A DNA stretch of 64,000 nt from Fistulifera solaris (GCA_030295235.1 AP026135.1:806001-870000), one strand, 5' to 3'. Numbered from the stretch's first letter, positions 10,443 through 64,000 are shown. Notes: generated by a model not told the origin, from the sequence alone. Translations and numbers: made by a program.

Positions 10443-11329
10443 TCATGTGTTTAATTTATCACCTGCATTGGCCCAGTGATGTTTGCGACAAAGATATGCG
10501 TAGACACATCTGGCGAAAATTGTGAGACAAGATTCTTCAATTGTAACTTCCGTAATGCAGGTACTTACTTATCATACGCCGAACTACCCCTCTCCCTCGA
10601 TCCATCGACGGGAAGGGAATGAACACTAACTCCTTGCCAATAGTGGTTAAGCTCATACTTGTATTCCAAGTACTCGACCCGACTATCTGGATTCCCCGTT
10701 GTGACAAGGAAGAACACTCCATGACTGCGTGCTAGAACACGGTGAATCTCCGCAACTACCAGATGCACGCTCGTCTTGGGACCGCTCAATACAGCATCAA
10801 ATGCTCCCTTGCAAATGATCAAATCAAAGGACTCATTTGCAAAAGGCAGAGGCTTAGTAATATCAGCACATACGAATTTCATCGGATGTAGGGGTTTGTA
10901 TCCAAAAACGTTCCGGTAGAATGCCTCTCCGTACTTGTGTTTCATTTGATCAATCACCACATCGGAAAAGTCTACGTTCATAATTGGACCTAACCATCCA
11001 TCCAATATCATTTCTTCCCCCAACGTTGAGTTGCCACAACCCAAAATAAGGACTCGACATTCTCTCTTGCGTGGAAAACGATTCGATTTGAGAATTTGCG
11101 GTTTCTGAACCCTCAGCGTTGTACCAGGTGCGACACCCATACGGTCCGGTTCCAAAAAGGGACGCAGCTGGTTGTAATTCATGTACCATTCACAGGGCTG
11201 ACTGCAACGATGCGCCCAAGTGAGAGCATGAGATGGTCCGAGAAAGTTACCTGGCAACCGAACAACTTACTCGTTGGCCGTTGTGGCATAGCGCTGGTTC
11301 CAATAGTTTAGGCTGCTGTAGAAGGACAT
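10443..11329 (-). CDS. Class I SAM methyltransferase, METTL13/EEF1AKMT4-like (introns 11202-11270, 10510-10568)
   Basis: Spliced model MSFYSSLNYWNQRY...CEWY...RVLILGCGNS...NVDFSDVVI...FDLIICKGAFDAVL...VYAYLCRK matches this family. Confidence 0.8.
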
Positions 11330-12519: not shown

Positions 12520-13641
12520 TTACATGGCGAAAGGAAGTATCAGATAGGAACCATAGAAAAGTTTCCATAGGTGCATGTAATATGAGTAGACTTGATCACT
12601 GTCTGTGGCATCGACTCCTTGGGATTCTTTTCGGACGGACCATCCAAACAAAACAGCCGACACACCGGTGATGAGTCGCGCCAAAGTAACGCCGGGCGAA
12701 GTTGCACGTGTGGCTTGTTGCAAAAAGAAAGCACCGGAGCCCCAAAATAGCGCCGTCAGCAAATTGCGCATGGCCATAAAGACCGTCTTTTGGCCGAGTC
12801 GGACGGAAAATGTCCGTATATTCAATGTTTGGTCTCCCAATACATCAGGGACGTCCTTCATTAATGCAATCACCAATCCGAAAACGGCAAAGAAGATGCT
12901 ACTCCATAGACATTGTGCATTCCCAAGTAGACTGGCCATGACGGTGGTCGGCGTTTGAAATGCCGCAGCTTGTGCGTGCGCAAAGAAGCTCGCGTTGATA
13001 ACCAAGCCGCGCACTGCCACGATACAAAATGCGGCCCAGATGGGAAAACGCTTGAGCCGTAATGGTGGTAGGGAGTACACGGTTCCGAAGAAGGCAGATG
13101 CCCAAAGGGCGCTATTCAATCCCCTCGTTCCAAAAACGGGGTTCGCGATTCCCATTGACACGGATCCGACAAAAGCCAACGAGACAATTGCAATGGCAGT
13201 TTTCTTCGATAAGAGACCCGCAGCAATAGGAAGATCCGGCTTGTTGATTCGATCAATTTCCACATCCGTAATTTGATTCAAGCCGGTGATGTACAAGTTC
13301 ATGAGAAGCGAAGGGATCATGGCGTAGAGCATGGATTGCCAGCAAAGCGGCGATAGCGCCGCAGCGACCGACGGAGCGGCTAAGAAGTGCAGTGAAGGAA
13401 TCGCCATTGCGGAACCTATGATAGTGTGAGGCCGAGTGAATTTCCATAGAATGGTGGGGAAGGAAGGCTTCGGCTTGACATCGCTCGTGAGTGCCGAGCT
13501 CTCCGTTGCTACATGACGTAATGTGCGCGATTTGCTGTGAATAACAGGTCTCACCCTGACAGCATTTCGTGTAGACAGCCCCAACGCTTGAGTTTGCAGG
13601 GAAACCCCTATGAGAAGCAATCGGAGCAACCGATGAATCAT
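12520..13641 (-). CDS. Homogentisate prenyltransferase (UbiA family, HPT/VTE2-like), likely plastid-targeted
   Basis: Motifs WKFTRPHTIIGS, GLNQITDVEIDRINKPDLPIAAG and KDVPDVLGD, several TM helices, and an N-terminal signal plus transit-like peptide. Confidence 0.9.
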   Translation of the reverse strand: MIHRLLRLLLIGVSLQTQALGLSTRNAVRVRPVIHSKSRTLRHVATESSALTSDVKPKPSFPTILWKFTRPHTIIGSAMAIPSLHFLAAPSVAAALSPLCWQSMLYAMIPSLLMNLYITGLNQITDVEIDRINKPDLPIAAGLLSKKTAIAIVSLAFVGSVSMGIANPVFGTRGLNSALWASAFFGTVYSLPPLRLKRFPIWAAFCIVAVRGLVINASFFAHAQAAAFQTPTTVMASLLGNAQCLWSSIFFAVFGLVIALMKDVPDVLGDQTLNIRTFSVRLGQKTVFMAMRNLLTALFWGSGAFFLQQATRATSPGVTLARLITGVSAVLFGWSVRKESQGVDATDSDQVYSYYMHLWKLFYGSYLILPFAM

Positions 13642-14532
13642 TATGAGAATTGAGATCTTTTGAAATAATGATTAGCGGTCTCTGTTCGCACTAACGCAAT
13701 TCGTTTCGAAAGCAAGAGTGTCGAAGAATAGAAAAAGTGAAAAAAAGAAGCTTTTCAGTAAAGTTTATGCTGAAATGATGATGATGTTTACCTTTCGACT
13801 CACTGTGTGATGGGCTATGATCTATGATGGTTTCGTTTTTTGTGACGGAGCCGATAGCGAGAAATTTTGTCGATCTTCTGCATGTGTTTCGTGTTTCGTA
13901 CGATCGTTATATTTTCATTACGGGGGCCGGAAGGACCAGGAACTGTTTCGAAGAGAGGGCGTATGTGTCGCCTGTCCTACTTTCCCTATCATAGTGCTGG
14001 TCTGAGATTTGCTCCGACTCGATCAGATATCAGTCCCGAATTATTGCTATTGTATCCTATACTGTCAAGTGTTTTGGGTAGGGTTCAGGGTTTTACCACG
14101 GCTGACCTGGATATCAGTCCCGAAACTTACTAACATGATGAGTCATCAATGGATTCCCGGGAATACTCTGCCATTTTGCTAACACTTAAGTTTGTTAGCA
14201 CAACGAAAACAAAAAAAATTAATCGCTACATAGCCACACACGATTTCACACAGAAAATTTTGATTGCTGGTGTTGTTTATGGCTTACCTGGTATGTGCTG
14301 GTTGTACGTACTGCGTACGTTTGCAGGCGTTCTAAATTTACCTCTTAACCTTAAGCACGAAAGGTTTTTCTTCGGCATGCATCATAATCGATAATCGCGA
14401 CGACGACTTGCAAAAAAGACGATTGTGTTGAAGATGAGTCTATTATTTGGCAAAACATTCCATTCTTGCGCGGAAGACAATCATCATTAATTTACTCATA
14501 TTAAAGGCTACACTACCGAAGAAGTTGAAAGA

Positions 14533-17104: not shown

Positions 17105-17227
17105 AAACATGTAGCATACATGGGAACACTCCTAGTAGTATATGAGCGACTATCTGAAGAATATCAAAATACTATTCATCTCTACAATATTTGCCTCAAT
17201 ATTTGACTACAACTACCTGGATGATAG

Positions 17228-20200
17228 TCAAACCACAAACTCTTGGAGGGGACGTTTTTGGCCGGCAAGGGGTCGAGCCGATCCGCAAGCCATGCACTTA
17301 CGACGTGAGATTTTGTTATGCAGGGTGCACGAAACACACGCCCACTCGTTGGAAGACGGTTGGCTCTCTTGACTGAACTCGGTAGACGACTGAGTCGCGG
17401 CTTCTGTGGGGCTGCGTTTTCCTTATTGAGCTGATTCTTGTTTCCCTTCTTTGCAATTGAGCCTGCTGAATCATCGCTAATGTCTATCGCAACTGTACCA
17501 CTGCCTTTCTTCTCATATAATGCATCACCGTCCTCGCCTTCGTTGTTATGGTCTGCTAGGAAAGCACAACGTCTCGAATCGTCGTGCTTCCGTCCTTGAA
17601 ACTTGTTTTCATTTCTTTTCTGATCATTAGTTGGCCGAGTCGCCCCACAAGCATTGCATTTTGTGCGTGAAGTTTTGTTGTGTAGTGTGCACGACAGGCA
17701 AAACCACTCGTCTGAATCAAGTTGACTTTCCTGGCTGAGCTCAGAAGATGATTGAGTTGAGGGTGCTTCCAGGGCTTTACTCTTCTTTTGTAGTTTCTTT
17801 TTTGCAGTGGCGCCTAACGACTCCTCGCCATCGCTGTTGTCCACCGTTAGTGTTCCGCTGCCTTTCTTCTTAGATAAAATTCCCTCACCGATGTCTTTAT
17901 CGGCGGTCTCATGCTGGTCGTCAATCTCACCTGCCTCGTCTTCGTCATCGCTTTCGTTCAGCTCTGAACGGCACCAAGCTCTTCCATAGCTTGGCGCTCT
18001 TCCTCCTCTTGCTGTCGCTCCTGAATGAGACTCCATGTCACCTCTAGGCCAAAAACAAACGAAACGGCGTCACAGCCCCGCATTGCTGCTCGGAAGATAG
18101 GGTCGTCCACGGTATCAGTAGTATGATGATGCGACCAATTACGCATATTCTCTTCATCAGGCATACCAATTTGTTCCTGGTAGTCCTCGCCTCGCTCGTT
18201 ATGTACATTTGCACAGCAACCCAAAACATCTCCCTCATCTTCCTTATCCTTCGTTTCCTCGTCTTCAGGTTTCATACTTAGTAGCGCGGGTACTAGATCT
18301 GTCCAACGCTCCAGCCACCAACATTGCAAGGATCGCGAGGCGTCGGCTATGGCATCTTGTTCGGGTTCCCAAACTTTGATCACATTAGAAAAGATGCGGT
18401 TGACGTCTTTTGCAAACTCCGACACTTTCTTGTAGTACGATTTTACTGGATCCTCGCACGGTTCAAGGCGTTTACGGATCACTTGAAAGTCCATTGGTTG
18501 CTTGACCAACTTTTCGTACTCATCCTTTGTTTTACCGTGTTCCGTAGGATCCAGCATTTTCAAAAACATTGCTGCCTCCGGAAGCTGGCACATCTCCTCC
18601 AAAAGTGATCGGCAAGCATCGAGTTGTCGGGGAAGCACTTTCAATGCATCCATTTCAGCACCATCCTGTATAATTTGACACCGATCACATCGAAGTTTGT
18701 CGTGAGTATCTGACGGTGTACCTGTTCTTAGTTTGAACAAGTTGCGCAACTCTTTCGTGCTAAGAGCATTGACTTGCTCTTTGTCGTCGACCACAGACTG
18801 AAGACCCTCTTTGGAGAGCTGGCGTTGAAAGATTTTCTCCTCGACGGTACCTGTTGCCAAGAAGCGATAAGTGAAACAGCGCTTCTTTTGTCCGTCACGC
18901 CAGCATCGAGCAGCCGCCTGAAGAATGGTTAGACGCATTGCTCGTTTAGTTCTGCATGAATTATATTGTGACTTACCTGTTTGTCGACGGCTGGATTCCA
19001 ATCAGGGTCGAAGAGAACTAAACGATTTCCTCCGATGAGATTGAGACCGCTGTTGGAAATTGTAAATAAAAGTGTTTTAGGGGACGTCAATCGTCAGCGC
19101 GGCAGTAAGTTTGACAAGCATACTCACCATCCACCTGCTTTACTCGATAACAGGAAAGCAACCAATGAACTGCTCGGGTCGTTGAACTCGTCCACCATCT
19201 TCTGTCGCTTTTTCATAGAAATGCTGCCATCAAGTCGACAGAATCCCCACGTGTTCTGTTTGCACATGCGGCCGATTAGATCTAACGTCTGAGTGTAGTT
19301 CGAAATGATAACGATCTTGTCATTGCCGTTGCCAGGTTTTCTCATTTCTTTCATAAGACGATACAGCACAAACATTTTCCCCGACCATTCTGGATGAACA
19401 GGGCCATCATTTCGACCGCCGTCGGAAAAGGGCAAAAACTTCGAGACCCCATCGGCACCAGGAGCAGCTGAAGTGACTTTGTCTTCGTCGTCCGTGTATT
19501 TGGCTTTCTTAGCACACGAACGCCCATTGCGTGCAGGACCTGACTTGGTCGACGGATCTTCTTCGGCGATGAGAGACGGATGATTGCACAATTTCATCAG
19601 CATTTGAATCGAAGACAAACAGTTCACTTGTTTTCCATCGAGAACGTGTTGCATATCCTTGCTGTTAACAAGATGTTGATACATGTTCTGCTGAATCTCC
19701 GTGAGGTTACAGCAGACCACTTGAACAAGCTTTGGAGGGAGATGCTGAGCGTTCAACGTGTTGACACGACGAAGGATGAACTCATTTACAATGGTGCTCA
19801 TATCATTCTGGATTTGCATCATCTTGCGTTTCTGCTCTTCGGTTGCATCAGGCTCACGACCACGTAGAATAGGGAAGAGCATTCTTCGACGAAATTCTTC
19901 CGCCGTACCCAGGATTCCTGGATTCGTAAAGTCCACCATCGCAAAAAAACTCGCTCAAGTCATTCTGCATGGGAGTACCAGTCAAGAGCACGCGGCGTTT
20001 GACTGGCAGAGAATTGAGCGCTCGGCTGGTCTGATTATCACTATTTTTGAGTCGATGAGCTTCGTCGCACACCAGTAAATCACAACAGTCTTTGAATTTT
20101 ATCATTCGAGGGGCATGAGTTCGAATGCACTCGTAGCTTGCGACAAGGATATTGTTGATTTTCGTCTTACAAAAACTATCAATGTTGCTTTCAATCGTCT

Positions 20201-21121
20201 TGCGGTCTCCTTCTGCTAAGGCCATGACTTTGACGGCATTTGGTCCAAGCCATTTCACAAACTCGTTTGCCCAGTTCTTGACCAAGGAGCACGGGCAAAC
20301 TACGACAACCCTCTTAGCGGTCGCTTCGCCGTTGGCTGTAATGCTCGTTTTCAACAGAGTGTAAATCAAAGTAACAGATTGAAGCGTTTTTCCCAAACCC
20401 ATGTCTGTTGGGCGAGAGGGCAACAATGAGACCACTATTTTAACTGTTTGTTGTTGAGATACATAGATAGGAACGTACCATCAGCGAGAATGCATCCATT
20501 TCCTTTAAAGGTTCTTAAACCCATAACGCATTGATACATGAAAAGCACACCTTCCCTTTGATGCGGTCGTAACCATTTCGCCAACACAGGAGGTACGAAG
20601 ACGTCTTGCTTATTGTAAGCTTCTTTTGGAGCAGCTTTGACGATGGTGACTTCTTCGTCTATACCGTGCTCGTCGGGTCGCATTTCTTTTAACAGCGTCG
20701 GAGGTAATCCTTTCGCCTCAACTCCTTCGTTGTGGGGACTTCTCCACAAAAGCAGCGGTTCAAACGGGCGTTCTTCGTTCTCTTCTTCCTCTTCATCATC
20801 ACTACAGTCCGTTCCCGATTCACCGTGATCTTTCGGTTTCTCGGGTGCCTTGAAATGCAATCCTCGTCCCGCCCGCGCGAGTAACTTTGCCATTCCATCC
20901 ATACGACGACGTTGCCCCAAACTACTTCTTCGAAGCGCTAGATCCGCCGCCTGATTGCGTCGCTTCTGAAAAGGTCGCTGAAAGGGCTTTTGCAGACCTA
21001 CCAATCCCACAAAAAGCGGCGCTTGTCGTACGACCAGCTTTGCCCCGGGTCGGAAAAGTGACGATGATTTCTTCACGACGGCATTGCATTTTTCCGTTTG
21101 TTGCCGATGAATGACTTTCAT
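17228..21121 (-). CDS. RAD54: RAD54-family SNF2 translocase with an inserted bromodomain and two C-terminal RanBP2-type zinc fingers (introns 20405-20478, 19050-19127, 18918-18976; three apparent frameshifts)
   Basis: SNF2 motifs [69 protein letters not shown] and [13 protein letters not shown] bromodomain-like [11 protein letters not shown]...[11 protein letters not shown] segment and W-x-C-x2-C...C-x2-C twice follow. Confidence 0.88.
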
Positions 21122-21549
21122 CTTATGACTGTGTCCTCTGCCAAGTTGTTTCTCTCAGACTGCAAGAGGTGGTGTGATTTGATATCTCTTTGCGGCTATT
21201 CGTTCTTGTCGACCATGTCAAGGTGCGCCTAGTTCTGCAATGTTGGCATCAAAGAATGAAGGGACTCGTTTGCGCAGCCAGCTGAGTTGGACTTAGGTAC
21301 AAGTACAAAGGCAACGGATGAATACGCCTCGTCATTTTTGGCGCAATCTTTTCAGTCAAGAAATGACGGGATTGAAGGCAACTGAACTCGTCTGGCCATC
21401 CGTCCCAAAAAACGTTCACTTTCCATCGCCGACCTTAAGGAAAACGCGTTCCATTACACCGCCAAGGTGAAAGAAGTTTCCATTATTCGGGGGAACACTA
21501 AAAGAACCTCCTTCTTTTCCATACCGATACCTCGTCTTTTCATCCCAGA

Positions 21550-36449: not shown

Positions 36450-37528
36450 TGTGAGATAGACTTTGGAACGTCCTTTTTTGTCTACGAAGGGAGTGCGGAT
36501 CGGGGAATGCTTTTGCGCTGTATGAATAACCAAAGGTGCTCTGCAAGACGAAAACAATGACGGATATTCACAAACGAATAGCAAATAAAAGCAACAAGGG
36601 TGATGGGTGATGAATCTCCCAGACGTGCTTGGCATTTGTTGTCAGGACGATGATGTGTGATGTGTTCGATCTTTTCTGTCGTTTTATTACGCGGTGCATC
36701 ATCGCGGTTCGCGGTCTCTCGCGACTCGCGAGGTCTTAAAATTCATTCTTGGATCGTCGTGACTGCATTCCCTCGTTGCGGTGATCCTTCGTCCTTCAAG
36801 GAGAAATAATAATAATCGCTTCAATTCACCTCCGTTCGCTCTGCTAGCTTGATAGTCTCATAAGCAAAAGCAAAAAGCAAAAAGTACAATGTAAAATACA
36901 ATTAATTTTACTTTAGCAGCGTTTGCAAATCACCTCTTGGCGAAATTCCTCAGAAAATAATATTGTTGTCCTTTCTATTATTCACTACCACTTTCATCAT
37001 TAATTTGTTTCCGAGCCAGACTGCAACCTACAACCTCGATTCGGTGGGCAAGGATGGTGAACAATTTTTCGCTATCACAATACAACTCCCATCAGCATCA
37101 TTTGCAATGCGTCGCCTCTAAAAAATGTCAATCATCCTAGGGGAAAGTTGTCATTTTTTTAAAATGCTATAGGCCAAAGTGTAGTCTTGAGACGATCGGT
37201 GGTCCCCGGTCGTGTCTGAATTAGACAGGACCTAGAGAGGTGGATTTTATCCTCAGTCCACAGCCCACTGGGTCAATTGTGTTTCTCTAACGTGTATAGT
37301 AAAGTCTAGCTATTTTTGTGTCACTGCATTTCAGTGATGAATCAAAACTTGTCGATGGACTATAAACCAAAGTGTTGGCGGCACTTCACCACGACTGCTT
37401 TATTTCAGTCGCGATTAAAGTTCAGAGATGACAGTTTACAAGTATCGGCACCAATACAAGTAATTATTCAGTTGCATCGTTTGCATTCATTCATTATTTA
37501 TTTATTTTTAATACAATTCGATGTCCTG

Positions 37529-40414
37529 ATGAACTGCCTTGTTAAGTTTCGATGGCTGCTGTTAGGGGCGCTGGTGAAGCTCGTTTCGACGCGATTGACG
37601 CCAGTCGTCAACTCTCATACAAAGATCTTATTGATCGACGTGGATAATACACTATACAGCGACCGGACTCACGGTATTGAACGGCAAATTGTTCAAAACA
37701 TTCATCGCTTTTGTCAGGAACGGCTGCAGATGACGGCGTCGCAAGCCGACGAATTGCATGCTAAATACGGATCTACGATTGAGGGTCTCCGCCAAACACT
37801 TTGGAATGATATACCGTCATGGAAACGGGAGGAACAAATGCGAGATTTCTACGACTTTGTCTACGCAAACATTCAGAAAGAGTCGCTCCTAGTGACCAGT
37901 AGGGAGACAAGTAGCTCGAATACGGGTTATACACACAACAGTGACCTGCAGGAACAATCGCGACAGGAACGTTTGCGGCAGCTTCTGAAGGTGTCACCAT
38001 TTCCTTTACACTTGGCTTCCAATTCACCGTTGCATCATATTGCGGATGTAGTGCAGCGAATGGGCTTGTGCGATGTCTTTGATCGTCTCTCATTCACGCC
38101 CGATTCTCCGAGGGCGAACGGGGGGAGAACGAAAACTGTCGAGTTCCCAACGAAACGACAAGCGTCGACATTCTTTGCTCCACTTCTATCGTCCGTCGAT
38201 GATACCGCGAAACACCAATTTGTCTTACTGGATGATTCACCAGCCGCACTAACAGCAGCTTCGCCTCCAATGAAAGGAGTACTGATCAACAATTCACCAG
38301 ACGCGGACCAGGGTGTGTCTCTCGACACGGCGCTTGCGCAAGAATATGGCTGGTTGGATCCAGATTATACGTTTTCGGACATTGAGTATTTGAGGGCGAA
38401 AAATGAGGTTGATTTGGGGTCGCTGAATCGAGAGGCATGGCAACACGTAGGAAATGAGCTCAGGGGGATGATCGCCACCGGGGCTGCCCCTTGTCGTCTG
38501 GCGATTGTGGATCTCGGTGCGGGTTTATTATCGATGCTTCGCTTGGTCGTGTTCGGCCACGACGATATGCCATCACTAAAAGACATGTTAGATGTCCCTG
38601 TTACGATGGATTACTATGCATACGAGCCGAATGAACAAGTTTGGACTGAGAGTATATTGGTTTTAAAAAGTTTAGGGTTTGAATTGGTTGAGGAAAGAAC
38701 ACTCAACGATAAGAAAAGGGTGGTGTTGACATACTCGCCTAAGAGTGATGAAACTCGTGTGACGGTACATCTACGATGTTGTGACTATCGGGATGATGAA
38801 AGCTCGGTTGAGATTTGTCCGCAGTTGATCGTTGGATGTTGCTTTGCCGACTTGATGGATCCGCGCGAATTGCCTTCTTCCCTGCTGAAATGCTTTCTCT
38901 CACAAAAACGGGAAGACAATGTTAGGGACTTTTGTGTCGCCTACTTCCCCATTACGTTTCGAGGGATCACTCAGTTGCTACCTTCACAGCCTTTCGAAGC
39001 GTCTTGCAGATCTGGTAGAACGATCCCATCCGATACGACTGTCTTCTCGCATTATGCCGATGTATTAAAATATCAGCATGGTCACAACCTCGACACTCAG
39101 TTGTTGGATACATCGATGAAAGAGTACGGTGCTGACTGTGTTTTTCAAGGCCGTTCGAACTGGCTCATTGATCCTCACCAACACGACTTCTTTTGGCAGA
39201 CGATGCTATACTTTTTCGGTAGCGTCGCTCCCGTAGATTTAGAGAAAACTGGGATATGGGATTTTGAGGGATGGATTTCAAGAACACGGAAAAACAACCC
39301 ACAAATTTACGTAGCCAACTTAGATCTCGTATATCGCATTCCTTTTTCAGGGAAGTGGCAGCTCAAATCCAGCGCAGAGACCTTGGCAAAATCTTTCCAA
39401 CATAGTATGTATGAAGAAATCCAATTCACTTCTCCCGGGCAGGTCACTTCCCAAAAAAAGAAACTCCCCAAACTATGCGGCGAACAAGTTCGAATCGAGT
39501 CCATAGCATCTCTGATCAGCACTGGAACGGAGCTCAAAATTTTTCATGGTTGTTTCGACGACGCTGCATTGGATGTGAACATTAAGGGAATGGACGACAC
39601 AAAGATGGCGTACCCTCTTGCGTATGGTTACTGCTTGGTCGGGCGTGTTGTTGAATGTGGTCCTGAGGTTCAGGATGCTGAGAACATTCTCGGCAGAACC
39701 GTTTTTGTCTTTGCTCCTCACACCTCTCAAGCGATCGTAGATTACTCAGGGGTACACTTTGTCCCAGACGACATTGATCCATATGATGCTATTTTCATGC
39801 CATCTGTGGAAACCGCTGTTTCTCTTATACACGAAGCTCACCCGCGTCTTGGGGATTCAGTTGGTGTTTTCGGCCAAGGACTTATAGGGCTACTCGTAAC
39901 GTGCCTTTTGAGCGACCAAGGACTCAACAAAATTTCAGGTAGATTTGGAACGGTATCAACTTTCGATTTATTGCCCGACCGTCTTGCCTTATCCGCTCTA
40001 ATGGGAGCATCGCAAGCACTTGCGCCAAATAGAGCAAGCGATGCCGGGCCATTTGATGTAACAATTGAAGTAAGCGGAAATCCACGCGCACTTCAATCCG
40101 CAATCGATTGTACACGTGACGGTGGAAGAATCATAATTGGATCTTGGTACGGAAACACTAATATCGCGCTATGCCTGGGTATAGACTTTCACCGGAGCCA
40201 CAAGGAATTGAAAGCATCTCAAGTAAGCTTTATACCACAGGGAATGCAGATGACTTGGACCAAGGATAGGCGCTTCCACCTAACCTGGGATTTGGTGAGG
40301 AAAATCAGGCCGTCCCGTCTGCTAACAAAGTGCTTAAAACTCTCAAACTGCCAGGAAGCATATGTCTTACTCAGTGAGGGCAAAGAAGTTGCTATTGCTT
40401 TTAAGTATTTATAA
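37529..40414 (+). CDS. Three-domain fusion: HAD pyrimidine-5'-nucleotidase-like + class I SAM methyltransferase-like + MDR (zinc-ADH-like) dehydrogenase
   Basis: One uninterrupted ORF. HAD: IDVDNTLY, YGSTIEGL, LASNS, LLDDS. MTase: YLRAKNEVD, IVDLGAG, CCFADL, YFPITF. MDR: SLISTGTE, YGYCLVG, VFGQGLIG, IEVSGNP, GSWYG, FHRSH. Confidence 0.85.
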   Translation: MNCLVKFRWLLLGALVKLVSTRLTPVVNSHTKILLIDVDNTLYSDRTHGIERQIVQNIHRFCQERLQMTASQADELHAKYGSTIEGLRQTLWNDIPSWKREEQMRDFYDFVYANIQKESLLVTSRETSSSNTGYTHNSDLQEQSRQERLRQLLKVSPFPLHLASNSPLHHIADVVQRMGLCDVFDRLSFTPDSPRANGGRTKTVEFPTKRQASTFFAPLLSSVDDTAKHQFVLLDDSPAALTAASPPMKGVLINNSPDADQGVSLDTALAQEYGWLDPDYTFSDIEYLRAKNEVDLGSLNREAWQHVGNELRGMIATGAAPCRLAIVDLGAGLLSMLRLVVFGHDDMPSLKDMLDVPVTMDYYAYEPNEQVWTESILVLKSLGFELVEERTLNDKKRVVLTYSPKSDETRVTVHLRCCDYRDDESSVEICPQLIVGCCFADLMDPRELPSSLLKCFLSQKREDNVRDFCVAYFPITFRGITQLLPSQPFEASCRSGRTIPSDTTVFSHYADVLKYQHGHNLDTQLLDTSMKEYGADCVFQGRSNWLIDPHQHDFFWQTMLYFFGSVAPVDLEKTGIWDFEGWISRTRKNNPQIYVANLDLVYRIPFSGKWQLKSSAETLAKSFQHSMYEEIQFTSPGQVTSQKKKLPKLCGEQVRIESIASLISTGTELKIFHGCFDDAALDVNIKGMDDTKMAYPLAYGYCLVGRVVECGPEVQDAENILGRTVFVFAPHTSQAIVDYSGVHFVPDDIDPYDAIFMPSVETAVSLIHEAHPRLGDSVGVFGQGLIGLLVTCLLSDQGLNKISGRFGTVSTFDLLPDRLALSALMGASQALAPNRASDAGPFDVTIEVSGNPRALQSAIDCTRDGGRIIIGSWYGNTNIALCLGIDFHRSHKELKASQVSFIPQGMQMTWTKDRRFHLTWDLVRKIRPSRLLTKCLKLSNCQEAYVLLSEGKEVAIAFKYL

Positions 40415-47698: not shown

Positions 47699-50600
47699 CT
47701 ACTCCGTCAGGGCGTATTCTTCCTCGTATTGCCTGACTTCCGCGTCTAGTTCTACCCAGCTTTCATGGAACAGATCTCCCTGAATCACACGTTTGGCCAT
47801 GGAAACTTTAGGTTCCTTATGCATGGGGTTGTTGCAAAGGTCGATGGTCTTGGCGTTCGCTTTACTTTCGTCCGAGCACCAGCTTTCACACCATAGCCAC
47901 TCTTGGGGAAGGCTGAAGATGGGGACCGAGTGTTGGGCATAATTTGGCAAGTCTTGATCCAAGTTTGCCAGACTATTCGGATCAGCCGAAAGTTGCTGAT
48001 AAATTGATCGGAGTGTGTCGCCGACTAAATTGCGGCGGAATACTTCCAAGTCCACGACGTAAAGGGCGGAAATATGGTATGGCTTTCCGCGCAAGTGGTT
48101 CTTCCAGAAGCCCTCCCTCCAAAACTGGTATCCCAAGGTCTCCTTTCGTGAGGAACAGAAAGGGGTATAACCATACGGAGCTCCTTTGAGGTCCATATCC
48201 CACAACTCCTTGAGGTCACCTCGGACAACTTGATCCGCGTCAACGTATATGATCTTCTTCACACTTTGGGGGAAAAGAACGTCAAGGAAAAGGATTTTAT
48301 ACCCCCAAATTATACGTTGCTTTTCCGATTGACTTCGAAGCCATTGTGGCCATTTGTACGTGACAAACTCCACTTCGCATCCGATGTTACGTGCCATGGC
48401 TTGCGCAGACTGCTTGAATGTTGGTGAGAGAAAATTTTCAAACAACCAGAATTTCACTTTTGAAGTTGTCCGCTTGGTGACAGAAAGCATCATAATTTTC
48501 AAAAAGCGTTCGTAAAGGTGACCTGTTGCGAGTGAAAAGACGTGAATTGTATCATCAGCTTCAACTACACCATTCTCTTCGCTGTGAAAAAGACTAGTAG
48601 ATTCAGCGAAACCAGACTTTCGCTGCAGCACTAGAAGTTCACCGCGGTTACTAAAGTCTTGGACAATGATTGGCATTCTGACCTCTTTTGGTATGTTGTT
48701 CGGATCCACGACCAAACGACCTCCGCGTGCACTACCATCAACCATATCAAACATTGTGGCTCCTTTTGACCCTTCGGCTATGGCTAGCTCCCATATTCCT
48801 GGGCTCGCTCTCAGCTGCCAATAACCAACAGTCTTCATAACTACAGTGTCAGAATAATTCATTTCTGCGCGATTTGTTGGGATAAATTGATTAGATGATG
48901 ACTCCGCAATCGACCCATCCATGTCCACTTCCACAAGAGGTTGCTTAATTTGTACGCCTACTTCAGTGTCCCTATTTAGAGTCAAATGCAACCCATTCGG
49001 TGGTGTACCCTTTGTTTCGAAACACTGGCCAAAAACAAGTAAGCTTTTGAGTTCATACACAACTTTGGTGCTACCCTTTCCATTCAAAAGAGGACCATCT
49101 CCACACCTCGTTTTTGTATCACAGAGCAAATTATCTGTATCTTGCAAGGCCCAACTCTGCTGCACATCCCAGGGCTCCGGCACATCCATTCGGACAGTCA
49201 ACGTATGGCATTCCGGTAAGTTCGAAAAGCTGGCAACTGGGCTTTCAAAGTTAAAAAATGACCTATGATCGGCAACGAATCTGTAATAGCTCGTAAGTGG
49301 AATTTTCGATTCGTTATCTAAAACAGATTTCGGCAGCAATACAAGGTCGATTGCAAATTGGAGGTGATCCCGGGCTATCAGGAGAATCGAAGAAAGTCGC
49401 TGGGCGGCTTCAGACAACGGATCGAGAACAGCTCCGAGATGAACCTGCAATTAAATAAGATTAGCAAACGTAGAGTCAACAACCAATCTCGCAGACAAAC
49501 ATACCTTCAGAGCTTCTCGATTTTCATTAGGTCCATTATTCCACGACAACGATAGTTTTCTTAAGTCTTCCTTGCTCCTTACGTCTAAATCGCTTATGAT
49601 ATCCCTCAATCGAGTCCGAGAGCTTGCCTCGGCATGTTCAGAGACCAATGCGACGACACGAGCAACACTTAAAAAGTATTGTGGTGATTCGACTGGAAAA
49701 TACGGGCTTAAGATGCGTGTAACTGCTCTCGAACTTGCCATCTGCACCGACAAAAGCATTTCCACATCAGAAAGCGTTACGAGCTCGTCGTCTAATAAGA
49801 AAGTACGCCCGTTTCCGACAATCAAATTGTTTGCTGATGTTTTGCGCTGTAGATACTTCTGCGAAGAGCAAAGGCCATCATTTGATAGCATTTTCCCACG
49901 GGCCTCTGGACTAAGGTCTACTAGTTTGTCAAGAAGCTGTTTTGTGGTGAGCGACTTGTACTTGGGGTCTAGGATCGTTTCCAATGCATCAGATTCCACG
50001 AAAGAGGCTTGTGCGAAAATTGAACAAATAGCGGTTGAGGCCGCTTTTATGTTACTTGGAAGAATTCGATACGCGACGCGTTCGTTTTTGTCCGGTAGTG
50101 ATTTCATGACCGACAAAAAGGCAGCGGCATGGGCCATTCCTAACTCAGTGCTGAAGTCAAAAATACCATCAATGACAAACTTGGTAGCATTCACTCGATC
50201 CGCTTCATCCTTGGTCATTTTGTTCGGGCTGCACAATGCCTCCTCCCCAAATGAATCGTTAAGATTCAAAAATTTGGGTATGGGGCCGGAGCTTTGATCG
50301 ATGAGTAGAGGATGAATCTTAGCATAAACATTGTCTCCCTCGAGTAAATAAGCATAGACAGACTTTGGTGAAGTATCTGTGATTTTTCCTTGCGAAATAA
50401 GAGATAACATATGGTTTTGTTCCTCGCCGAAAAGTCGATTGATACTTTCATCAGCCATATTAACAGGCAACGGTCGTCCATTGACAAAACCCATTCCTGG
50501 TTTTAGGCCGCGCTGAACAGCAAATTTAATCGAATGACCGTATGCTATGACATCGTCATTCTTGTCGCCGGCTTTCATGCTTGTCGTGGCGTCCGAAACG

Positions 50601-52603
50601 GCTTCTTCCGCTGGCTTCAAGTTAAGACTCTGGTAAAGCTTCCCATGGAAATCTAGTAATTGGCCTATCGACACAGATTCGTTGTTGGATCGAGCATCTC
50701 TGAGGAATGACATGATGTATTCAATGTATGAGAATATCCCTCCAGGGTAGGCACGCAAGTCTCGAATGGCAGTAAGTAATAAGTGATGCACAGTTTGAGT
50801 CGTGGCTGTTGCCTTCGAAATATCCGGTTCCGACTTCGTATCAAAGATGCTAGGGATGGGACATGGTTCGCTTGTTGTAGTGCCTTGTTTGCTCAGAAAA
50901 GTCGAGCACTCCTGAAAGTGTTTCGTGTCTACGAGTAACAAACCGATTCGAACAGGATATGCGGCTTGCATGAGCTGGAGACCGAGATTCAAAGCAACAT
51001 TTTCTGGATCTTCAATGGGATCCATCACGGCAAGTAGTGTGAACAAATTTCTTCTCACCGAAGGTGGCCCTCCGTATTCCATATTCATCCTCATGTGATG
51101 CAGCGAAGTAGGCCATCGCGAATACAAACTATCTTTCTCAACATCATTCAGATAGATCACAGCATTCTTCCAGCCACGAGCGACATCGATCCGAAGTGTC
51201 TTCGATTTGGCATCTTTCTTATCTCCCGCACTACCCTCAAGAAATCGTTTGCCGTTCATCCATGCCGCTTGAACATCATGAAGTGCAGCTTGAGGAAGAT
51301 CCTTCAACATTTCTGCTATTTCATCCAAATTCCTTTGTTCTTTTTGTATGACGTTGAGTATATCAAACAAATTGAAGGACGCCATGTCAATCGGCAATGG
51401 CTTTCCGTTTATGTACAGTAGCCCTGGTCGGAGCGCTCCGCTTTCCTCGAGCACCTCTACGGCTTTCCGAAGATTATCAGGAACCTCCAAGTGAACTAAT
51501 GATGAGGCCATACTCGGTAAATTCTGTGATATCTGCTGCAAAGTAACAAGTGGGTCGGTGGCCGAATTCAGAATAGCTGTCGTTGCTTGCAGGGGTAACT
51601 GTCGCCGGCGCCACACCGGAGGAATGAGAGAAGAGTGAAGATTTTGATTATGGTGGGCTGACCAGAGCTTACGAACTAATGCTTTGTCTTTATCAAGACC
51701 CAGGGCTGTCAAATTGACTCCGGAAAGAAATTCTGGAGGGACATCCAGGTCATCTTTGGTTAGGTCGACCATGATCTCGTTATCAGAATGGAACAAATCG
51801 TTACCTTGGTCGTCAAATACCTTGTACTCCACGTTTCGAATATCCAACCATACACCATACCCTTGCAGCGGGAGACCCGTTGCGTTACTTTTGTTTCGTT
51901 CTTCGTAATCAACAGCACCCATGTGACGCACTACAAAAGGAATCTTTAAGTTTCTCAACAGGCGGTAGGTTGCTGCGAAAAGTGGCGTCCCCATATTCCC
52001 GTAAAGTATCACATATGCATTCTCGCCAGAAGCCGGTATTATTGTTTCTTTCGGAATCGTTTTCACCGCAGTTTGAGGCTTTGTGACAAGGAAGGAACTG
52101 AGTGTGTCGACTGCGACAATCTCTCCGTCTACCACAGCGAAAGCATCTGATGGATGCAAAAACAAGTGGTGCGATTGTTGCTGCTGCAATGTCTCTCGTG
52201 CTAATCCTCTATAGAGTTCACAGTGCGGACTCTGCGCTCGCAATGCGAGAGAAAGCTGTAAGAGCTGTTTTGCTGCTCCCATCAAAGGAGTGACCTTCAT
52301 CACCAGCTCCGCAGCTATTGCGTCACTCATCACTCGATCCAAATTTTCCTCCACCAGGCGATCAAGAAATTCGACTCCTTTTTCTTCCCGATTGTGATAC
52401 ACAAAAGCTTCACAGAAAACATTGTGCGGAGTGGAAGGCCAATGATTGGCGACGACAGATGTCTCCAACTCTCGATTCACCAGCGGGGATACCATTGTAT
52501 GGAGCTCATCATTTCCTTCTACGACCCAGACTACGATCAGTAGCAAGGGACAGAGCAATAAATTGGAAAAGATGATCGAATGCTTTGCCATGGGTGATTT
52601 CAT
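47699..52603 (-). CDS. UGGT: UDP-glucose:glycoprotein glucosyltransferase (intron 49445-49504)
   Basis: Signal peptide and LQGYGVWLDIRNVEYK. GT24 domain IHVFSLATGHLYERF, WGYKILFLDVLFP, YVDADQVVR, LANLDQDLPN, WLWCESWC and IDLCNNP. Confidence 0.96.
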
Positions 52604-53329
52604 TTTGTGCTTGATGCAATAAGGCGATTGAATCTCAAGTTGAAAAAAAGTCGCCGGCCTTTGTGTTTCAAAAGACGAGCTGGTCACGGAAATGCGTCAC
52701 TGCAGCAAACAAAGGGGTAGACAGGTCTCCAACTTCCAACTTCCAGTTGTTTAAAATTGCTGAGTTAGCGCACGATAAAATGACTCCTTCGTCAATAGAT
52801 TGATGGAGTTAGTCCGTAGAAACAAAACGGAATAACAAAACAACAACCGCATACGTCGAGTAGCAGCGATACGACACTGTAGACAGAAACGTAAAGTTCG
52901 AATGGTAGTACCGGTACGCCATTTCAAACAAATGAATGCATTTCAGGAAATTGAAACTATGGAAGCGACGTGAATTATTCTTGTATCTCTAGAGAATAAT
53001 GACACTACCAGGAAGGGAGTATACTTATTCTTTGTTTTGGTCATGTTTAATCACCGGAAACTCCTGCTGCAACTTGCTCAACCAGTCTTGCAAAAAAGAC
53101 TCTCTAAAGTGTCGCCCGTATTTAGCCGAGACTGGATATCAGGTTTGAGTCATGAATGGTGGGCGTGTTTCGCGCGCTAATATTAGGATTCTAGACGAGT
53201 ACTATTTTGAACTATAGATTCACATATGCAATTAGCTAATCTGTAAAAACGCAAAGCGTAGCTCGACGCCTACACATTTGGATCAATGGCTGATCTTGCT
53301 TCCGAGTAGCGTGTCTCCTTACGCCGCAG

Positions 53330-62152: not shown

Positions 62153-63112
62153 GCTGCCGTGACATTGTACATGATGCATCCTTTTATTACCGATCCTTGC
62201 CTTTTAATCACTCGCTCTTTATACTTCTAACCGCTTACATAATCATGTTTTTCATCAAACTATTGCGATTATAGAAATTGTCGATGCCATGAATCAAATG
62301 CAGTGTCACACGGCCAACAGGCAGCATCCATTCATTGTAATAGGCAACTGGTTGTTTATTGTAAATGATTCAAAACCTAGTCGGAGTGGACTATACGTAG
62401 TACAAGCAAAGCAGCTCAGTCGTAATGTAAAATGGAGGGGACCATTCGCCACACTAGGGCCTCTTGCGCCACAACTGCTTTCGAGCCTGACTCATACAAG
62501 TCTTTGTGAAATTGATAAACTAATAACACTTTTAAAAGCTTATCAGTTATCAGCAGTTCTTAGCACCGTTTGAATGCACGTCTTGGTACAAAGTATTTAC
62601 GAAGAAAATTCGTTGTTCCAAATCACTATAGACCCAAGTGTCTGCGACGTTTCACCACGACTACATTTCAGTCATGAATTATGATGTTGCCGATCCCGAC
62701 ATCTATTCATTCTTCGTTTCTTTGCAACATTGATAAGCAGTACTTGTTTATCACACGATGCGATCAACATCAGCAGCAGTTGTAATGCACGCCTTTCTCA
62801 CCAAGAAGAAATAAATGTGAGAACATCGTTGACTTTTTCCGGGACTGGCTCTATTTGATGAATACAGAAAGATTTCTGCCTTTTACATTCCACTCCACAG
62901 TAAATGTTGACAGACGACATACGGTGACGTCTTGCGTCTTTCCTTCCATCATTCGTTTTTTCCTGTTCGCGCGTTTTCTCGAAACTCTCGAAACCTCTTG
63001 GTCGCGAGATGGGGCTGGAACGAAGAACGTGCCATTTTCATTCGTTGGCGTAAAGTTCGAAGCAGAAGAATCGAAAGACACCAACCACACACACCTTATT
63101 TTATAATACAAA

Positions 63113-64000
63113 ATGGCGGATTTATTGAAAGAAGCGGCCAAGGTTATCGCCGAACCACAGCAGCAGGAAGATCTGACAATCGTGTCAGATTCGATCATCC
63201 CTTCGGACCCTGACATGACGTGTCGACGATCGGAAGGACAAGTTTGCATTTGTGATGCATGCGAAGCGACGCGAACGAGAATTATACATCGCATGAACAA
63301 AAAGAAAAGAGCAAAGGCAGTCAATGACGTGAAAGATGAGACATCTCTCGCGGTAGCCCCCGACCCTGCCGTTCAGGGCGAATCTCGTCTTGCGAAGAAA
63401 CGAAAGGAACCCGAGGAAGAGAAGGATGATGAAGCAGAACGTCTGTTAAAGATGACAGATGCTTGTAGAACAATACTACGATGCATCGGAGAGGATGAAA
63501 CTAGAGAAGGTCTTCTGAAGACTCCTCAACGATGGGCCAAGGCATTGATGTGTATGTGTTCCGGATACGGCATGGAGGCACAGGACGTCACGAATAACGC
63601 TGTATTCTCCGAAAATCACGACGAAATGGTGGTTGTTCGTGATATTGATATACATTCGTTGTGTGAGCACCACATGTTGCCATTCACAGGACGTGTGTCC
63701 ATTGGTTATATTCCCAACGGAAAAATATTGGGACTCAGTAAGCTAGCGCGTATCGCGGAGTTGTACGCCCGCAGATTACAAGTTCAGGAACGCTTGACTC
63801 GCCAGATTGCGGATGCTATTGTAGAAACGGTAGAGCCCCTGGGAGTGGCTGTTGTCGTGGAATGCACACATTTCTGCATGGTCATGCGGGGTGTTCAAAA
63901 AGTCGGCGCCGTCACCACCACATCGTCGGTCCGGGGTTGCTTTGAAAACAACGCCAAAACACGCGCCGAATTTTTCAGTATCATACAAGGGAATCGCATG
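63113..64000 (+). CDS. GCH1: GTP cyclohydrolase I (stop codon lies beyond the window end)
   Basis: My translation, not in the ORF track: [71 protein letters not shown] and TRAEFF. Confidence 0.96.

Follow-up and report, generated by a model that had tools for sequence, protein, structure and literature searches.

The 64,000-nucleotide stretch of Fistulifera solaris DNA analyzed here (GCA_030295235.1 AP026135.1:806001-870000; hereafter the window) contains a real diatom nuclear gene for a trifunctional enzyme, in which a HAD-superfamily phosphatase domain, a predicted class I S-adenosylmethionine (SAM)-dependent methyltransferase domain and an apparently zinc-less MDR dehydrogenase domain follow one another in a single chain. 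The cofactor and catalytic motifs of all three domains are intact in this one polypeptide. The MDR and methyltransferase domains are, judging by sequence, homologous to genes of a prokaryotic cluster that also encodes GTP cyclohydrolase (GCH) II or III and a PTPS-like protein. With modest confidence we propose that the fusion oxidizes, methylates and dephosphorylates a GTP-derived pyrimidine or pteridine intermediate in one pathway branching off early riboflavin synthesis, for which we infer the substrate, the order of the steps and the chemistry. The superfamilies involved are known; the subfamilies, the fusion and the pathway are uncharacterized in the literature searched. No functional account of the fusion or of the cluster product was found there (subscription journals and supplements could hold some). 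A preliminary description of the window, made from the sequence alone, likewise knew of no established product for the cluster.

A single gene encoding three domains

The gene consists of 961 codons and a TAA stop and is unbroken. It lies in an open frame of 1032 stop-free codons, extending from 37316 to the TAA at 40412-40414, and translation from the ATG at 37529 yields a protein of 961 amino acids (P0001). The closest orthologues, P0003 (963 amino acids, 88% identity) and P0004 (960 amino acids, 86% identity), align with 100% coverage and share the start MNCL with P0001, so that ATG 37529 is favored over an upstream in-frame ATG at 37337 and is likely the true start. Because there are no stops or frameshifts within the gene and the orthologue alignments run end to end, an intron is unnecessary. 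The preliminary description had likewise announced a single intronless open reading frame (ORF) of about 960 residues without frameshift; its domain limits fall within about 20 nucleotides of those found here, and every motif that it listed for the methyltransferase (YL.AK..VD, YFPITF.G, G.S.W) and the dehydrogenase (GTE, GSWYG, FHR, SQVS, W...RR) is present in the gene.

The model held for this locus by the protein collection, P0002 (894 amino acids), begins at Met68 and is therefore without the presequence and the DxDxT nucleophile (window 37529-37732). A 77% identical relative, P0005, is shortened at the N terminus in just the same manner.

This disagreement of automatic models over the start, with P0002 lacking DxDxT, is what would speak for a gene-model artefact, in which three neighboring genes or a pseudogene had been read through as a single ORF. 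The 1032 stop-free codons, the identical domain order in 120 listed homologues (647-1254 amino acids), the invariance of the catalytic residues of all three domains and the compactness of the predicted full-length structure make such an artefact so improbable that it can practically be set aside. The structure, modeled with 39 orthologues (alignment A3), has a predicted local distance difference test (pLDDT) score of 85.4 and a predicted template modeling (pTM) score of 0.83. Among the homologues, the MMETSP transcriptome record P0062 ("type:complete", 992 amino acids, 97% coverage) encodes the entire fusion, which argues for one transcript rather than separate genes. Scans with the whole protein returned PF00107, TIGR01993 (6.6e-15), BchC (4.5e-9) and the XMP phosphatase 7ef6 (3.8e-8), all of them weak and under curated cut-offs.

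In the N-terminal HAD domain, motif I (DxDxT) and motifs II to IV (Ser/Thr, Lys and an acidic pair) are intact. Residues D37, D39, S164, N165, K209 and D236 are invariant in 40/40 aligned orthologues, and D235 is at least 90% conserved. The likeness to SDT1-type pyrimidine 5'-nucleotidases, pointed out earlier together with the intact DxDxT (here DVDNT), is a resemblance only, with TIGR01993 scoring 55.4 bits against a cut-off of 142.9. PF00702 gives 15.2 bits for the window domain against a cut-off of 26.4, which remoter fusion relatives pass (P0295, for example, with 39 bits). The best solved relative is the plant XMP phosphatase, and the closest characterized relatives (7ef6, TIGR01993) use 5'-phosphates of ribosyl heterocycles. 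In the source annotation, diatom orthologues are labeled "FMN phosphatase YigB (HAD superfamily)".

The middle domain is, by fold prediction, a class I SAM-dependent methyltransferase with the Rossmann-like, seven-stranded fold of that class, and methyl transfer is its predicted activity. Pfam retrieved no family for the middle 354 residues at an E value of up to 10. Modeled with 41 hand-picked relatives (alignment A1), the same residues gave a pLDDT of 92.2 and a pTM of 0.90, and the top 50 PDB matches in Foldseek, at a probability of 1.00 and with target-normalized template modeling (TM) scores of up to 0.58, were nearly all named methyltransferases (two were unnamed proteins), in line with the class I assignment first made from sequence. 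These matches include 3mgg, histamine N-methyltransferase, TmtA and the phosphoethanolamine and sarcosine/dimethylglycine N-methyltransferases; the list also holds O-, S- and C-methyltransferases, with xanthosine methyltransferase at rank 50. The motif I glycines G56 and G58 and the acidic residues D145 and D167 are kept in 40-42 of 42 sequences from eukaryotes and in 23-24 of 24 from prokaryotes. The cross-kingdom alignment shows 19 positions conserved in both groups, including YL.AK..D, Y....G.T and S.W, so that the methyltransferase motifs of the preliminary description extend across eukaryotes and prokaryotes. A search with this domain alone recovered 168 representatives at an E value of up to 1e-3 among 1.84 billion, and those inspected all lie within long proteins.

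The C-terminal domain suggests a zinc-less, NAD-type dehydrogenase. Foldseek with the full-length model placed the MDR enzymes 6ie0, 2d8a and 4ilk first (target-normalized TM scores of 0.74-0.77; 0.74 for 6ie0), and the closest relative in both structure and sequence is 2R,3R-butanediol dehydrogenase (6ie0). Among solved structures, its nearest relatives belong to the polyol type of dehydrogenase, with butanediol, iditol, threonine, idonate, galactitol-1-phosphate or sorbitol as substrates. The Cys, His and Glu zinc ligands of 6ie0 (in cGsD and GHE) become Ser, Tyr and Ser in the family profile and Thr/Ser, Tyr and Cys in the window protein (LISTGTE and GYC), which upholds the earlier remark that ISTGTE stands in place of the catalytic-zinc Cys motif. 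The glycines G782, G784 and G787 of the dinucleotide loop are invariant in 40/40 sequences. In MDR enzymes generally, an Asp after the second Rossmann strand, as found here, suggests a preference for NAD over NADPH. PF00107 scores 28.9 bits, under its cut-off.

BchC (TIGR01202) is the top NCBIfam model for the diatom MDR domain and its prokaryotic homologues (4.5e-9 to 8.8e-19), and BchC presumably carries a similar GTE and GYE/GYS in place of the zinc ligands. The scores of 36-68 bits (35.9 bits for the window domain) are far under the cut-off of 291.25, and a BchC-type chlorophyll function was rejected. To our knowledge, the lineages that bear the cluster do not make bacteriochlorophyll.

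The protein is probably targeted, by what reads as a signal-peptide-like presequence. The model has a helix at residues 2-20 and a low-confidence linker at 20-28. The hydrophobic character is kept among orthologues, the sequence itself is not. Of the 70 orthologues that begin with Met and have 20 or more residues ahead of the DxDxT motif, 59 contain, within their first 45 residues, a 10-residue window with a mean Kyte-Doolittle value of at least 1.9; in a control window placed internally, 29 of 121 reach this value. The hydrophobic N terminus of the preliminary description is thereby confirmed. The riboflavin pathway is located in the plastid in plants, and early steps supplied by a diatom plastid riboflavin pathway could fit such a presequence.

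Distribution of the fusion and of a related prokaryotic gene cluster

A search with the whole protein retrieved 192 proteins of 528-1682 amino acids at an E value of up to 1e-3. The 120 matches listed have 37-100% identity and 55-100% coverage and come from centric and pennate diatoms; among them the named orthologues are all from diatoms, in the genera Seminavis, Nitzschia, Skeletonema, Thalassiosira, Cyclotella, Fragilaria, Cylindrotheca, Epithemia and Mayamaea (37-88% identity). A Pfam scan of 35 long methyltransferase-bearing proteins found the HAD domain in most of those with a recognizable N terminus. In P0337 the methyltransferase stands at the very N terminus, and P0326 and P0368, the only two of their kind among 373 proteins searched with family hidden Markov models (HMMs), have a PTPS domain (PF01242) instead of HAD ahead of methyltransferase and MDR. 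Stand-alone "bacterial" MDR proteins of ~300 amino acids and ~60% identity were discarded as truncated eukaryotic gene models, as they start in the middle of the domain or carry pieces of the methyltransferase.

A quick maximum likelihood tree (LG+G4, unrooted) was built from 73 rows, namely 20 hand-picked eukaryotic and all 53 prokaryotic MDR domains. It sets the 20 eukaryotes on one side of a branch with an SH-aLRT support of 100 and the 53 prokaryotes on the other, where Thermoplasmata, Halobacteria and Gammaproteobacteria each form one group; the window protein falls among the pennate diatoms. An unrooted tree indicates at most one origin for the eukaryotic family, and this one identified no donor lineage or direction of transfer among its 73 rows. 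A horizontal acquisition, as suggested earlier, may or may not lie behind the single eukaryotic clade.

The prokaryotic cluster was delimited by searching one genome per GTDB species with an MDR-domain alignment, which gave 53 loci with 31-41% identity over residues ~10-340. From each locus with flanks of up to 10 kb, ORFs of at least 70 amino acids were translated (3743 in all), a greedy non-overlapping subset of at least 90 amino acids was grouped into families by all-against-all BLAST, and the families were counted by HMM over all 3743 ORFs (Table 1). The loci belong to Chloroflexota, Methanomassiliicoccales, Spirochaetota, Halobacteriales, Myxococcota, Methylococcaceae, Calditrichota and Gemmatimonadota. 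The gene set named in the preliminary description, with PTPS-like, GT4, CDP-alcohol phosphotransferase and RibA/RibD-like proteins and haloarchaeal members, thus exists. In the Halobacteriales, GCH III lies directly upstream in 4/4 loci, in place of GCH II.

The MDR domain is homologous to the cluster proteins over its full length. It is 41% identical (E value of 1e-78) to an Anaerolineae cluster protein (L013), which shares the MDR motifs listed above, and an HMM built from prokaryotic sequences matches the MDR domain of the eukaryotic P0326 at 2.1e-94. For the methyltransferase, a pairwise comparison of diatom and cluster proteins gives 23% identity over 334 columns. A profile built from eukaryotes only retrieves exactly one ORF of ~300 amino acids in each of 27 loci, end to end and with E values of 5e-30 to 2e-10, and does not match the second, CMAS-like methyltransferase of 10 loci. 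A profile built from prokaryotes and tblastn recover the same 27, in which methyltransferase and MDR homologues are neighbors as the preliminary description had supposed. One prokaryotic homologue (L034:12539-13459) matched four methyltransferase models, all under cut-off.

The seven Methanomassiliicoccales loci carry MDR and PTPS-like genes (with GT4 in 6/7, not in L011), whereas the methyltransferase, GCH II and RibD_C are all missing from the surrounding 10 kb. Near these genes stands a ~600-amino-acid protein without a Pfam or NCBIfam match, located 2-3 kb downstream of MDR in L002, L003, L006, L007, L011 and L012 and ~5 kb upstream on the opposite strand in L004, with a signal-like N terminus, Thr/Pro-rich linkers and a C-terminal hydrophobic tail. 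As a cluster enzyme this 620-residue neighbor family (F11) was rejected, since none of the cluster domains, methyltransferase and PTPS included, is found in it and its features suggest a surface protein that is secreted. In one Halobacteriales locus (L035:12351-13451, +), a 366-amino-acid CbiX-like protein of chelatase fold follows the GCH III, MDR, PTPS-like and methyltransferase genes.

Candidate pathway and competing explanations

The entry enzymes of the cluster pass NCBIfam cut-offs, GCH II with 266.7 against 148 and RibD_C with 155.1 against 150.15, and fusions of GCH II to RibD_C without the deaminase domain occur in the cluster. The MDR, PTPS-like, GT4 and methyltransferase members, in contrast, matched none of the specifically named NCBIfam families. 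The GCH II of L034 aligns without gaps to Escherichia coli RibA and keeps the residue aligned with Tyr105. A variant GCH II forming a formamidopyrimidine was considered and rejected on this one protein, which looks canonical. Deaminase, lumazine synthase and riboflavin synthase were absent from a Pfam scan of 17 of the 25 largest neighbor families (F10 and F12 scanned as ORFs of L029), and the lack of a conserved deaminase fits retention of the 2-amino group. From its gene content, the cluster appears to share its two opening steps with riboflavin synthesis and to diverge after them with the 2-amino group kept. The canonical riboflavin pathway, with which the cluster has these two enzymes in common and the diatom fusion a HAD-type phosphatase, has no place for MDR, PTPS-like and methyltransferase steps.

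The best solved relative of the PTPS-like proteins is SCO6650 (3d7j, 2.9e-9). Residues H14, H28 and H30 and three Glu are invariant in 21/21 aligned sequences; we take the histidines to be the PTPS/QueD metal triad and the Glu to be the T-fold anchor of a 2-amino-4-oxopyrimidine ring. The Cys-containing PTPS-I and PTPS-II motifs and FGPAQ occur in none of the 52 prokaryotic PTPS-like proteins. Algal PTPS-like domains have FGPAQ exactly in 5/9 and FG.AQ in 8/9. In a published neighborhood analysis, FGPAQ is the signature of PTPS-IV, which PF00925 and PF01872 adjoin (PMC5445326), and a second source gives the function of PTPS-IV itself as unpublished (PMC5041015). With PTPS-IV the present proteins thus have in common the relative 3d7j, the algal signature and the two neighbors. 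They differ from it in the missing prokaryotic FGPAQ and in the three-His set, which 3d7j does not fully share, and the accessible account of PTPS-IV is silent on an association with MDR, methyltransferase, GT4 and CDP-alcohol transferase and on eukaryotic fusions.

A search with the PTPS part of P0326 recovered seven shorter proteins (P0374-P0380), one of them from the haptophyte Prymnesium polylepis, with two or three tandem PTPS-IV-like domains; such T-fold repeats within a single chain looked unusual. An Atlas search for such a partner returned just bacterial PTPS clusters (score of 0.89).

In the pathway that we favor, the substrate would be a GTP-derived 2-amino-4-oxo-pyrimidine or pteridine whose polyol side chain is phosphorylated. 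Entry would most likely be by way of 2,5-diamino-6-ribitylamino-4(3H)-pyrimidinone 5'-phosphate, which GCH II and then a reductase of RibD-C type produce, so that the branch point would lie in early riboflavin synthesis, ahead of deamination. The zinc-less NAD-type MDR domain would act like polyol dehydrogenases and BchC and oxidize a secondary alcohol in the side chain, and the PTPS-IV-like T-fold partner, in diatoms a separate gene or one not located, would rearrange or cyclize the keto intermediate. By chemical reasoning, the keto-amine that arises in the Amadori step of GCH I would also result if the ribityl chain were oxidized at C2', and closure to dihydroneopterin phosphate would be possible. 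The methyltransferase domain would add one or more methyl groups and the HAD domain would cleave the terminal phosphate. In many prokaryotes the product would then be glycosylated by GT4 and probably joined to a lipid or other alcohol by way of the CDP-alcohol phosphatidyltransferase and the flippase-like protein. Diatoms would draw the early steps from their own riboflavin pathway.

Parts of this pathway are joined in single chains in the PTPS-methyltransferase-MDR fusions P0326 and P0368 and in a 654-amino-acid Spirochaetales protein (L009:12177-14141, +) that unites GT4 (E value of 9e-70) with the methyltransferase (6.5e-60). The preliminary description had linked the three activities in one pathway for a GTP- or pterin-derived or a sugar-phosphate metabolite. 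The link agrees with a cluster that contains GCH II or III and in which a PTPS-type partner adjoins the MDR gene, and with the fusion of that partner in some algae; of the substrate classes, the GTP-derived one is favored and a sugar phosphate is less likely.

The direction of the MDR reaction could be the reverse. Placed after the PTPS-like enzyme, the MDR domain would then reduce a 1',2'-diketo or hydroxy-keto side chain, as sepiapterin reductase does with 6-pyruvoyl-tetrahydropterin, and the product would be a methylated pterin of biopterin or neopterin type, made into a glycoside in prokaryotes. Adjacency of MDR and PTPS-like genes in 52/53 loci suits this order, as does the kinship to 2R,3R-butanediol dehydrogenase, an enzyme that interconverts vicinal diketone, hydroxyketone and diol, and a solved tetrahydrobiopterin glucosyltransferase (5ze7, 4.3e-9) is among the GT4 relatives. 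We nevertheless regard it as unlikely, because the loci have GCH II/III and RibD-C instead of GCH I and these do not make dihydroneopterin triphosphate, because the Asp after the second Rossmann strand points to NAD and, from general MDR knowledge, to oxidation, and because the catalytic Cys motif of PTPS is found in 0/52 proteins. The nearest solved relatives of the cluster GT4 are moreover PimA (1e-18), PimB' and MshA (1.2e-15), much closer than the pterin glucosyltransferase. Tetrahydrobiopterin synthesis likewise combines a T-fold enzyme of the PTPS family with an oxidoreductase that uses NAD(P) and whose target is a short, oxygenated side chain, and GT4 may decorate its product; its differences are GCH I in place of GCH II/III, a short-chain dehydrogenase in place of a zinc-less MDR, and the PTPS Cys motif absent here.

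The GT4 relatives bear on a further explanation, in which the heterocycle is discarded and a polyol-phosphate head group or compatible solute is made, for example from a unit of ribitylamine type (similar to aminopentanetetrol) that undergoes N-methylation, glycosylation and then either linkage to lipid or dephosphorylation to a free solute. PimA, PimB' and MshA glycosylate inositol lipids or inositol phosphate, and the cluster resembles the sequence from phosphatidylinositol phosphate through a phosphatase to PimA, with CDP-alcohol phosphatidyltransferase in 23/53 loci, the flippase-like protein in 15/53 and the sulfatase-superfamily protein in 8/53. Hypersaline and soda-lake organisms contribute several of the loci, and diatoms live in the sea. 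The phosphoethanolamine, histamine and sarcosine/dimethylglycine N-methyltransferases among the Foldseek matches would suit N-methylation, but that list holds O-, S- and C-methyltransferases as well. We consider this explanation quite unlikely, given that no obvious ribitylamine-cleaving enzyme is present in the cluster and that the PTPS-like proteins keep what we presume to be heterocycle-binding T-fold residues. The accessible part of the published record reports aminopentanetetrol in Methanospirillum, Thermocrinis and halo(alkali)philic euryarchaea, including methanogens and ANME-2d. An aminopentanetetrol lipid as the product was rejected, as these organisms, so far as that part of the record goes, overlap little with the cluster taxa and gene evidence is lacking.

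Two known systems illustrate how such parts may cooperate. In the phosphatidylinositol phosphate/PimA logic, a CDP-alcohol transferase joins an alcohol phosphate, which is dephosphorylated and then glycosylated by a GT4 enzyme, and in roseoflavin tailoring the phosphatase RosC and the N,N-dimethyltransferase RosA act on a heterocycle with a ribityl-5'-phosphate. Both are analogies, with homology only at the superfamily level.

None of the prokaryotic clusters contains a counterpart of the HAD domain, which leaves room for an explanation in which the eukaryotic methyltransferase-MDR pair was recruited to an unrelated substrate, either a cyclitol, as in the gadusol enzyme MT-Ox, or a nucleotide, with XMP or a pyrimidine nucleotide being dephosphorylated before its base is methylated. 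The order of methyltransferase and oxidoreductase is that of MT-Ox, the best solved HAD relative is the plant XMP phosphatase, and xanthosine methyltransferase is among the fold matches, at rank 50. We judge this very unlikely, for the algal PTPS-methyltransferase-MDR fusions connect the eukaryotic family with the partner that accompanies its prokaryotic counterparts. By 2015 genome sequences of diatoms had been released. A paper of that year lists an MT-Ox-like gene only in Aureococcus, Coccomyxa and vertebrates (PMC4426668), and MT-Ox is probably a different family from the diatom fusion. Vertebrate and algal MT-Ox are described as making gadusol from 2-epi-5-epi-valiolone (PMC4426668, PMC7826186), with a SAM methyltransferase followed by an NAD-dependent oxidoreductase in one chain, as in the fusion. 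The present fusions differ in an extra HAD or PTPS domain and a GTP-based prokaryotic context, and an EEVS partner is missing from the window, where none of the 52 ORFs scanned is a sugar-phosphate cyclase. A gadusol MT-Ox function is kept as a low-confidence alternative only, given the missing EEVS and the absence of diatoms from the 2015 list.

Several observations weigh against the GTP-derived pathway that we prefer. No HAD homologue was found among the 3743 ORFs of the 53 loci, so that the phosphatase step would be a eukaryotic addition. The methyltransferase is absent from 26/53 loci, including 7/7 of the Methanomassiliicoccales and 2/4 of the Halobacteriales, and is an accessory rather than a core member of the cluster. 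The loci were chosen by their MDR motifs and come mostly from metagenome-assembled genomes, and absences are in part due to truncation on short contigs (such as L017, L030 and L045) and in part real, as for the methyltransferase in the Methanomassiliicoccales, where the flanks are full. Because the HAD, MDR and methyltransferase domains all score under curated cut-offs, no enzyme specificity can be transferred to them, and the MDR domain could work as a reductase instead of an oxidase. None of the 52 ORFs scanned in the 64-kb window is a partner gene. The single search made for a diatom PTPS-IV-like partner gave the seven relatives mentioned above, none of them named as a diatom, and diatoms may run a shortened or different pathway.

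A more far-reaching version is that the fusion belongs to an unrecognized branch from GTP, in which MDR would oxidize the ribityl side chain of the early riboflavin intermediate and the PTPS-IV-type enzyme would turn it into a pterin-type ring without GCH I, with a methylated and dephosphorylated product in a membrane-bounded compartment in diatoms and haptophyte-like algae and a glycosylated, lipid-linked form in many bacteria and archaea; we put it forward only tentatively and as rather doubtful. At 63107-64000 (+), ~23 kb away from the fusion, an ORF that is cut off by the end of the window matches GCH I (PF01227, 9e-72), which could be a coincidence or a second gene for the conversion of GTP to pterin.

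Diatoms account for a large share of marine primary production, and a conserved enzyme of theirs carries only generic labels such as "alcohol dehydrogenase". The cluster, conserved in at least eight prokaryotic phyla, supplies a testable substrate hypothesis (GTP, GCH II and RibD-C reductase) and bears on the long-open question of the role of PTPS-IV-type proteins and "extra" RibA/RibD paralogues. Should the product prove to be a new pigment, head group of a lipid or cofactor of pterin type, it would form a metabolite class common to algae, bacteria and archaea.

Feature coordinates and surroundings of the gene

Table 1. Features of the fusion gene in window coordinates, and members of the prokaryotic cluster by occurrence among the 53 loci
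Feature	Location	Strand	Basis
Complete single-exon coding sequence, 961 amino acids + TAA (P0001)	37529..40414	+	ORF, orthologues with 100% coverage
Hydrophobic presequence, residues 1-23, signal-peptide-like	37529..37597	+	Model helix, hydropathy of orthologues
HAD-superfamily phosphatase domain, nucleotidase-like, residues ~30-274	37616..38350	+	TIGR01993, PDB 7ef6, invariant residues
HAD motif I DVDNT, residues 37-41 (nucleophile Asp37, Asp39)	37637..37651	+	Alignment
Predicted divergent class I SAM-dependent methyltransferase domain, residues ~275-606	38351..39346	+	Predicted fold, Foldseek, prokaryotic homologues
SAM-binding motif I VDLGAGLL (G330, G332 invariant)	38507..38530	+	Alignments
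Family-specific motif YFPITFRG (Y, G, T conserved across kingdoms)	38942..38965	+	Cross-kingdom alignment
Apparently zinc-less MDR dehydrogenase domain, polyol-dehydrogenase/BchC-like, residues ~627-961	39407..40411	+	PF00107, TIGR01202, Foldseek, cluster homologue
LISTGTELK, residues 662-670, at position of catalytic-zinc Cys motif	39512..39538	+	Alignment to 6ie0
AYGYCLVG, residues 698-705, at position of GHE zinc-ligand motif	39620..39643	+	Alignment to 6ie0
GQGLIG dinucleotide-binding motif, residues 782-787	39872..39889	+	Alignments; G782, G784, G787 invariant
STFDLL with Asp813, aligned to acidic residue of butanediol dehydrogenase	39956..39973	+	Alignment to 6ie0
PTPS-like protein, 0.2-2.8 kb downstream of MDR	52/53 loci		HMM count
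GT4 glycosyltransferase	45/53 loci		HMM count
RibD C-terminal reductase (RibD_C)	34/53 loci		HMM count
Methyltransferase of ~300 amino acids, homologue of diatom domain	27/53 loci		HMM count
GCH II, often fused to RibD_C reductase	25/53 loci		HMM count
CDP-alcohol phosphatidyltransferase	23/53 loci		HMM count
LPG_synthase_TM / HpnL-like flippase-like protein	15/53 loci		HMM count
CMAS-like second methyltransferase	10/53 loci		HMM count
DUF7475	10/53 loci		HMM count
Sulfatase-superfamily protein	8/53 loci		HMM count

The window is ordinary eukaryotic nuclear DNA with 43-50% G+C, and its genes include SRP54, a SNARE, a phosphomannomutase, an SNF2 helicase and UGGT. The phosphomannomutase (PF03332; 16195-17101, +) is split between neighboring frames, one with profile positions 16-89 and the other with 90-220, for which a short intron is the simplest explanation. 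At 17185-21154 (-), ORFs with SNF2 helicase, Helicase_C, bromodomain and RanBP zinc-finger matches are probably one intron-split chromatin remodeler. Two adjoining ORFs at 47702-52696 (-) resemble UDP-glucose:glycoprotein glucosyltransferase, with thioredoxin-like domains and Glyco_transf_24 (1.8e-137). A Methyltransf_11 methyltransferase at 10568-11266 (-) lies near a UbiA-family prenyltransferase at 12523-13671 (-), possibly as a quinone/tocopherol-type pair unrelated to the fusion.

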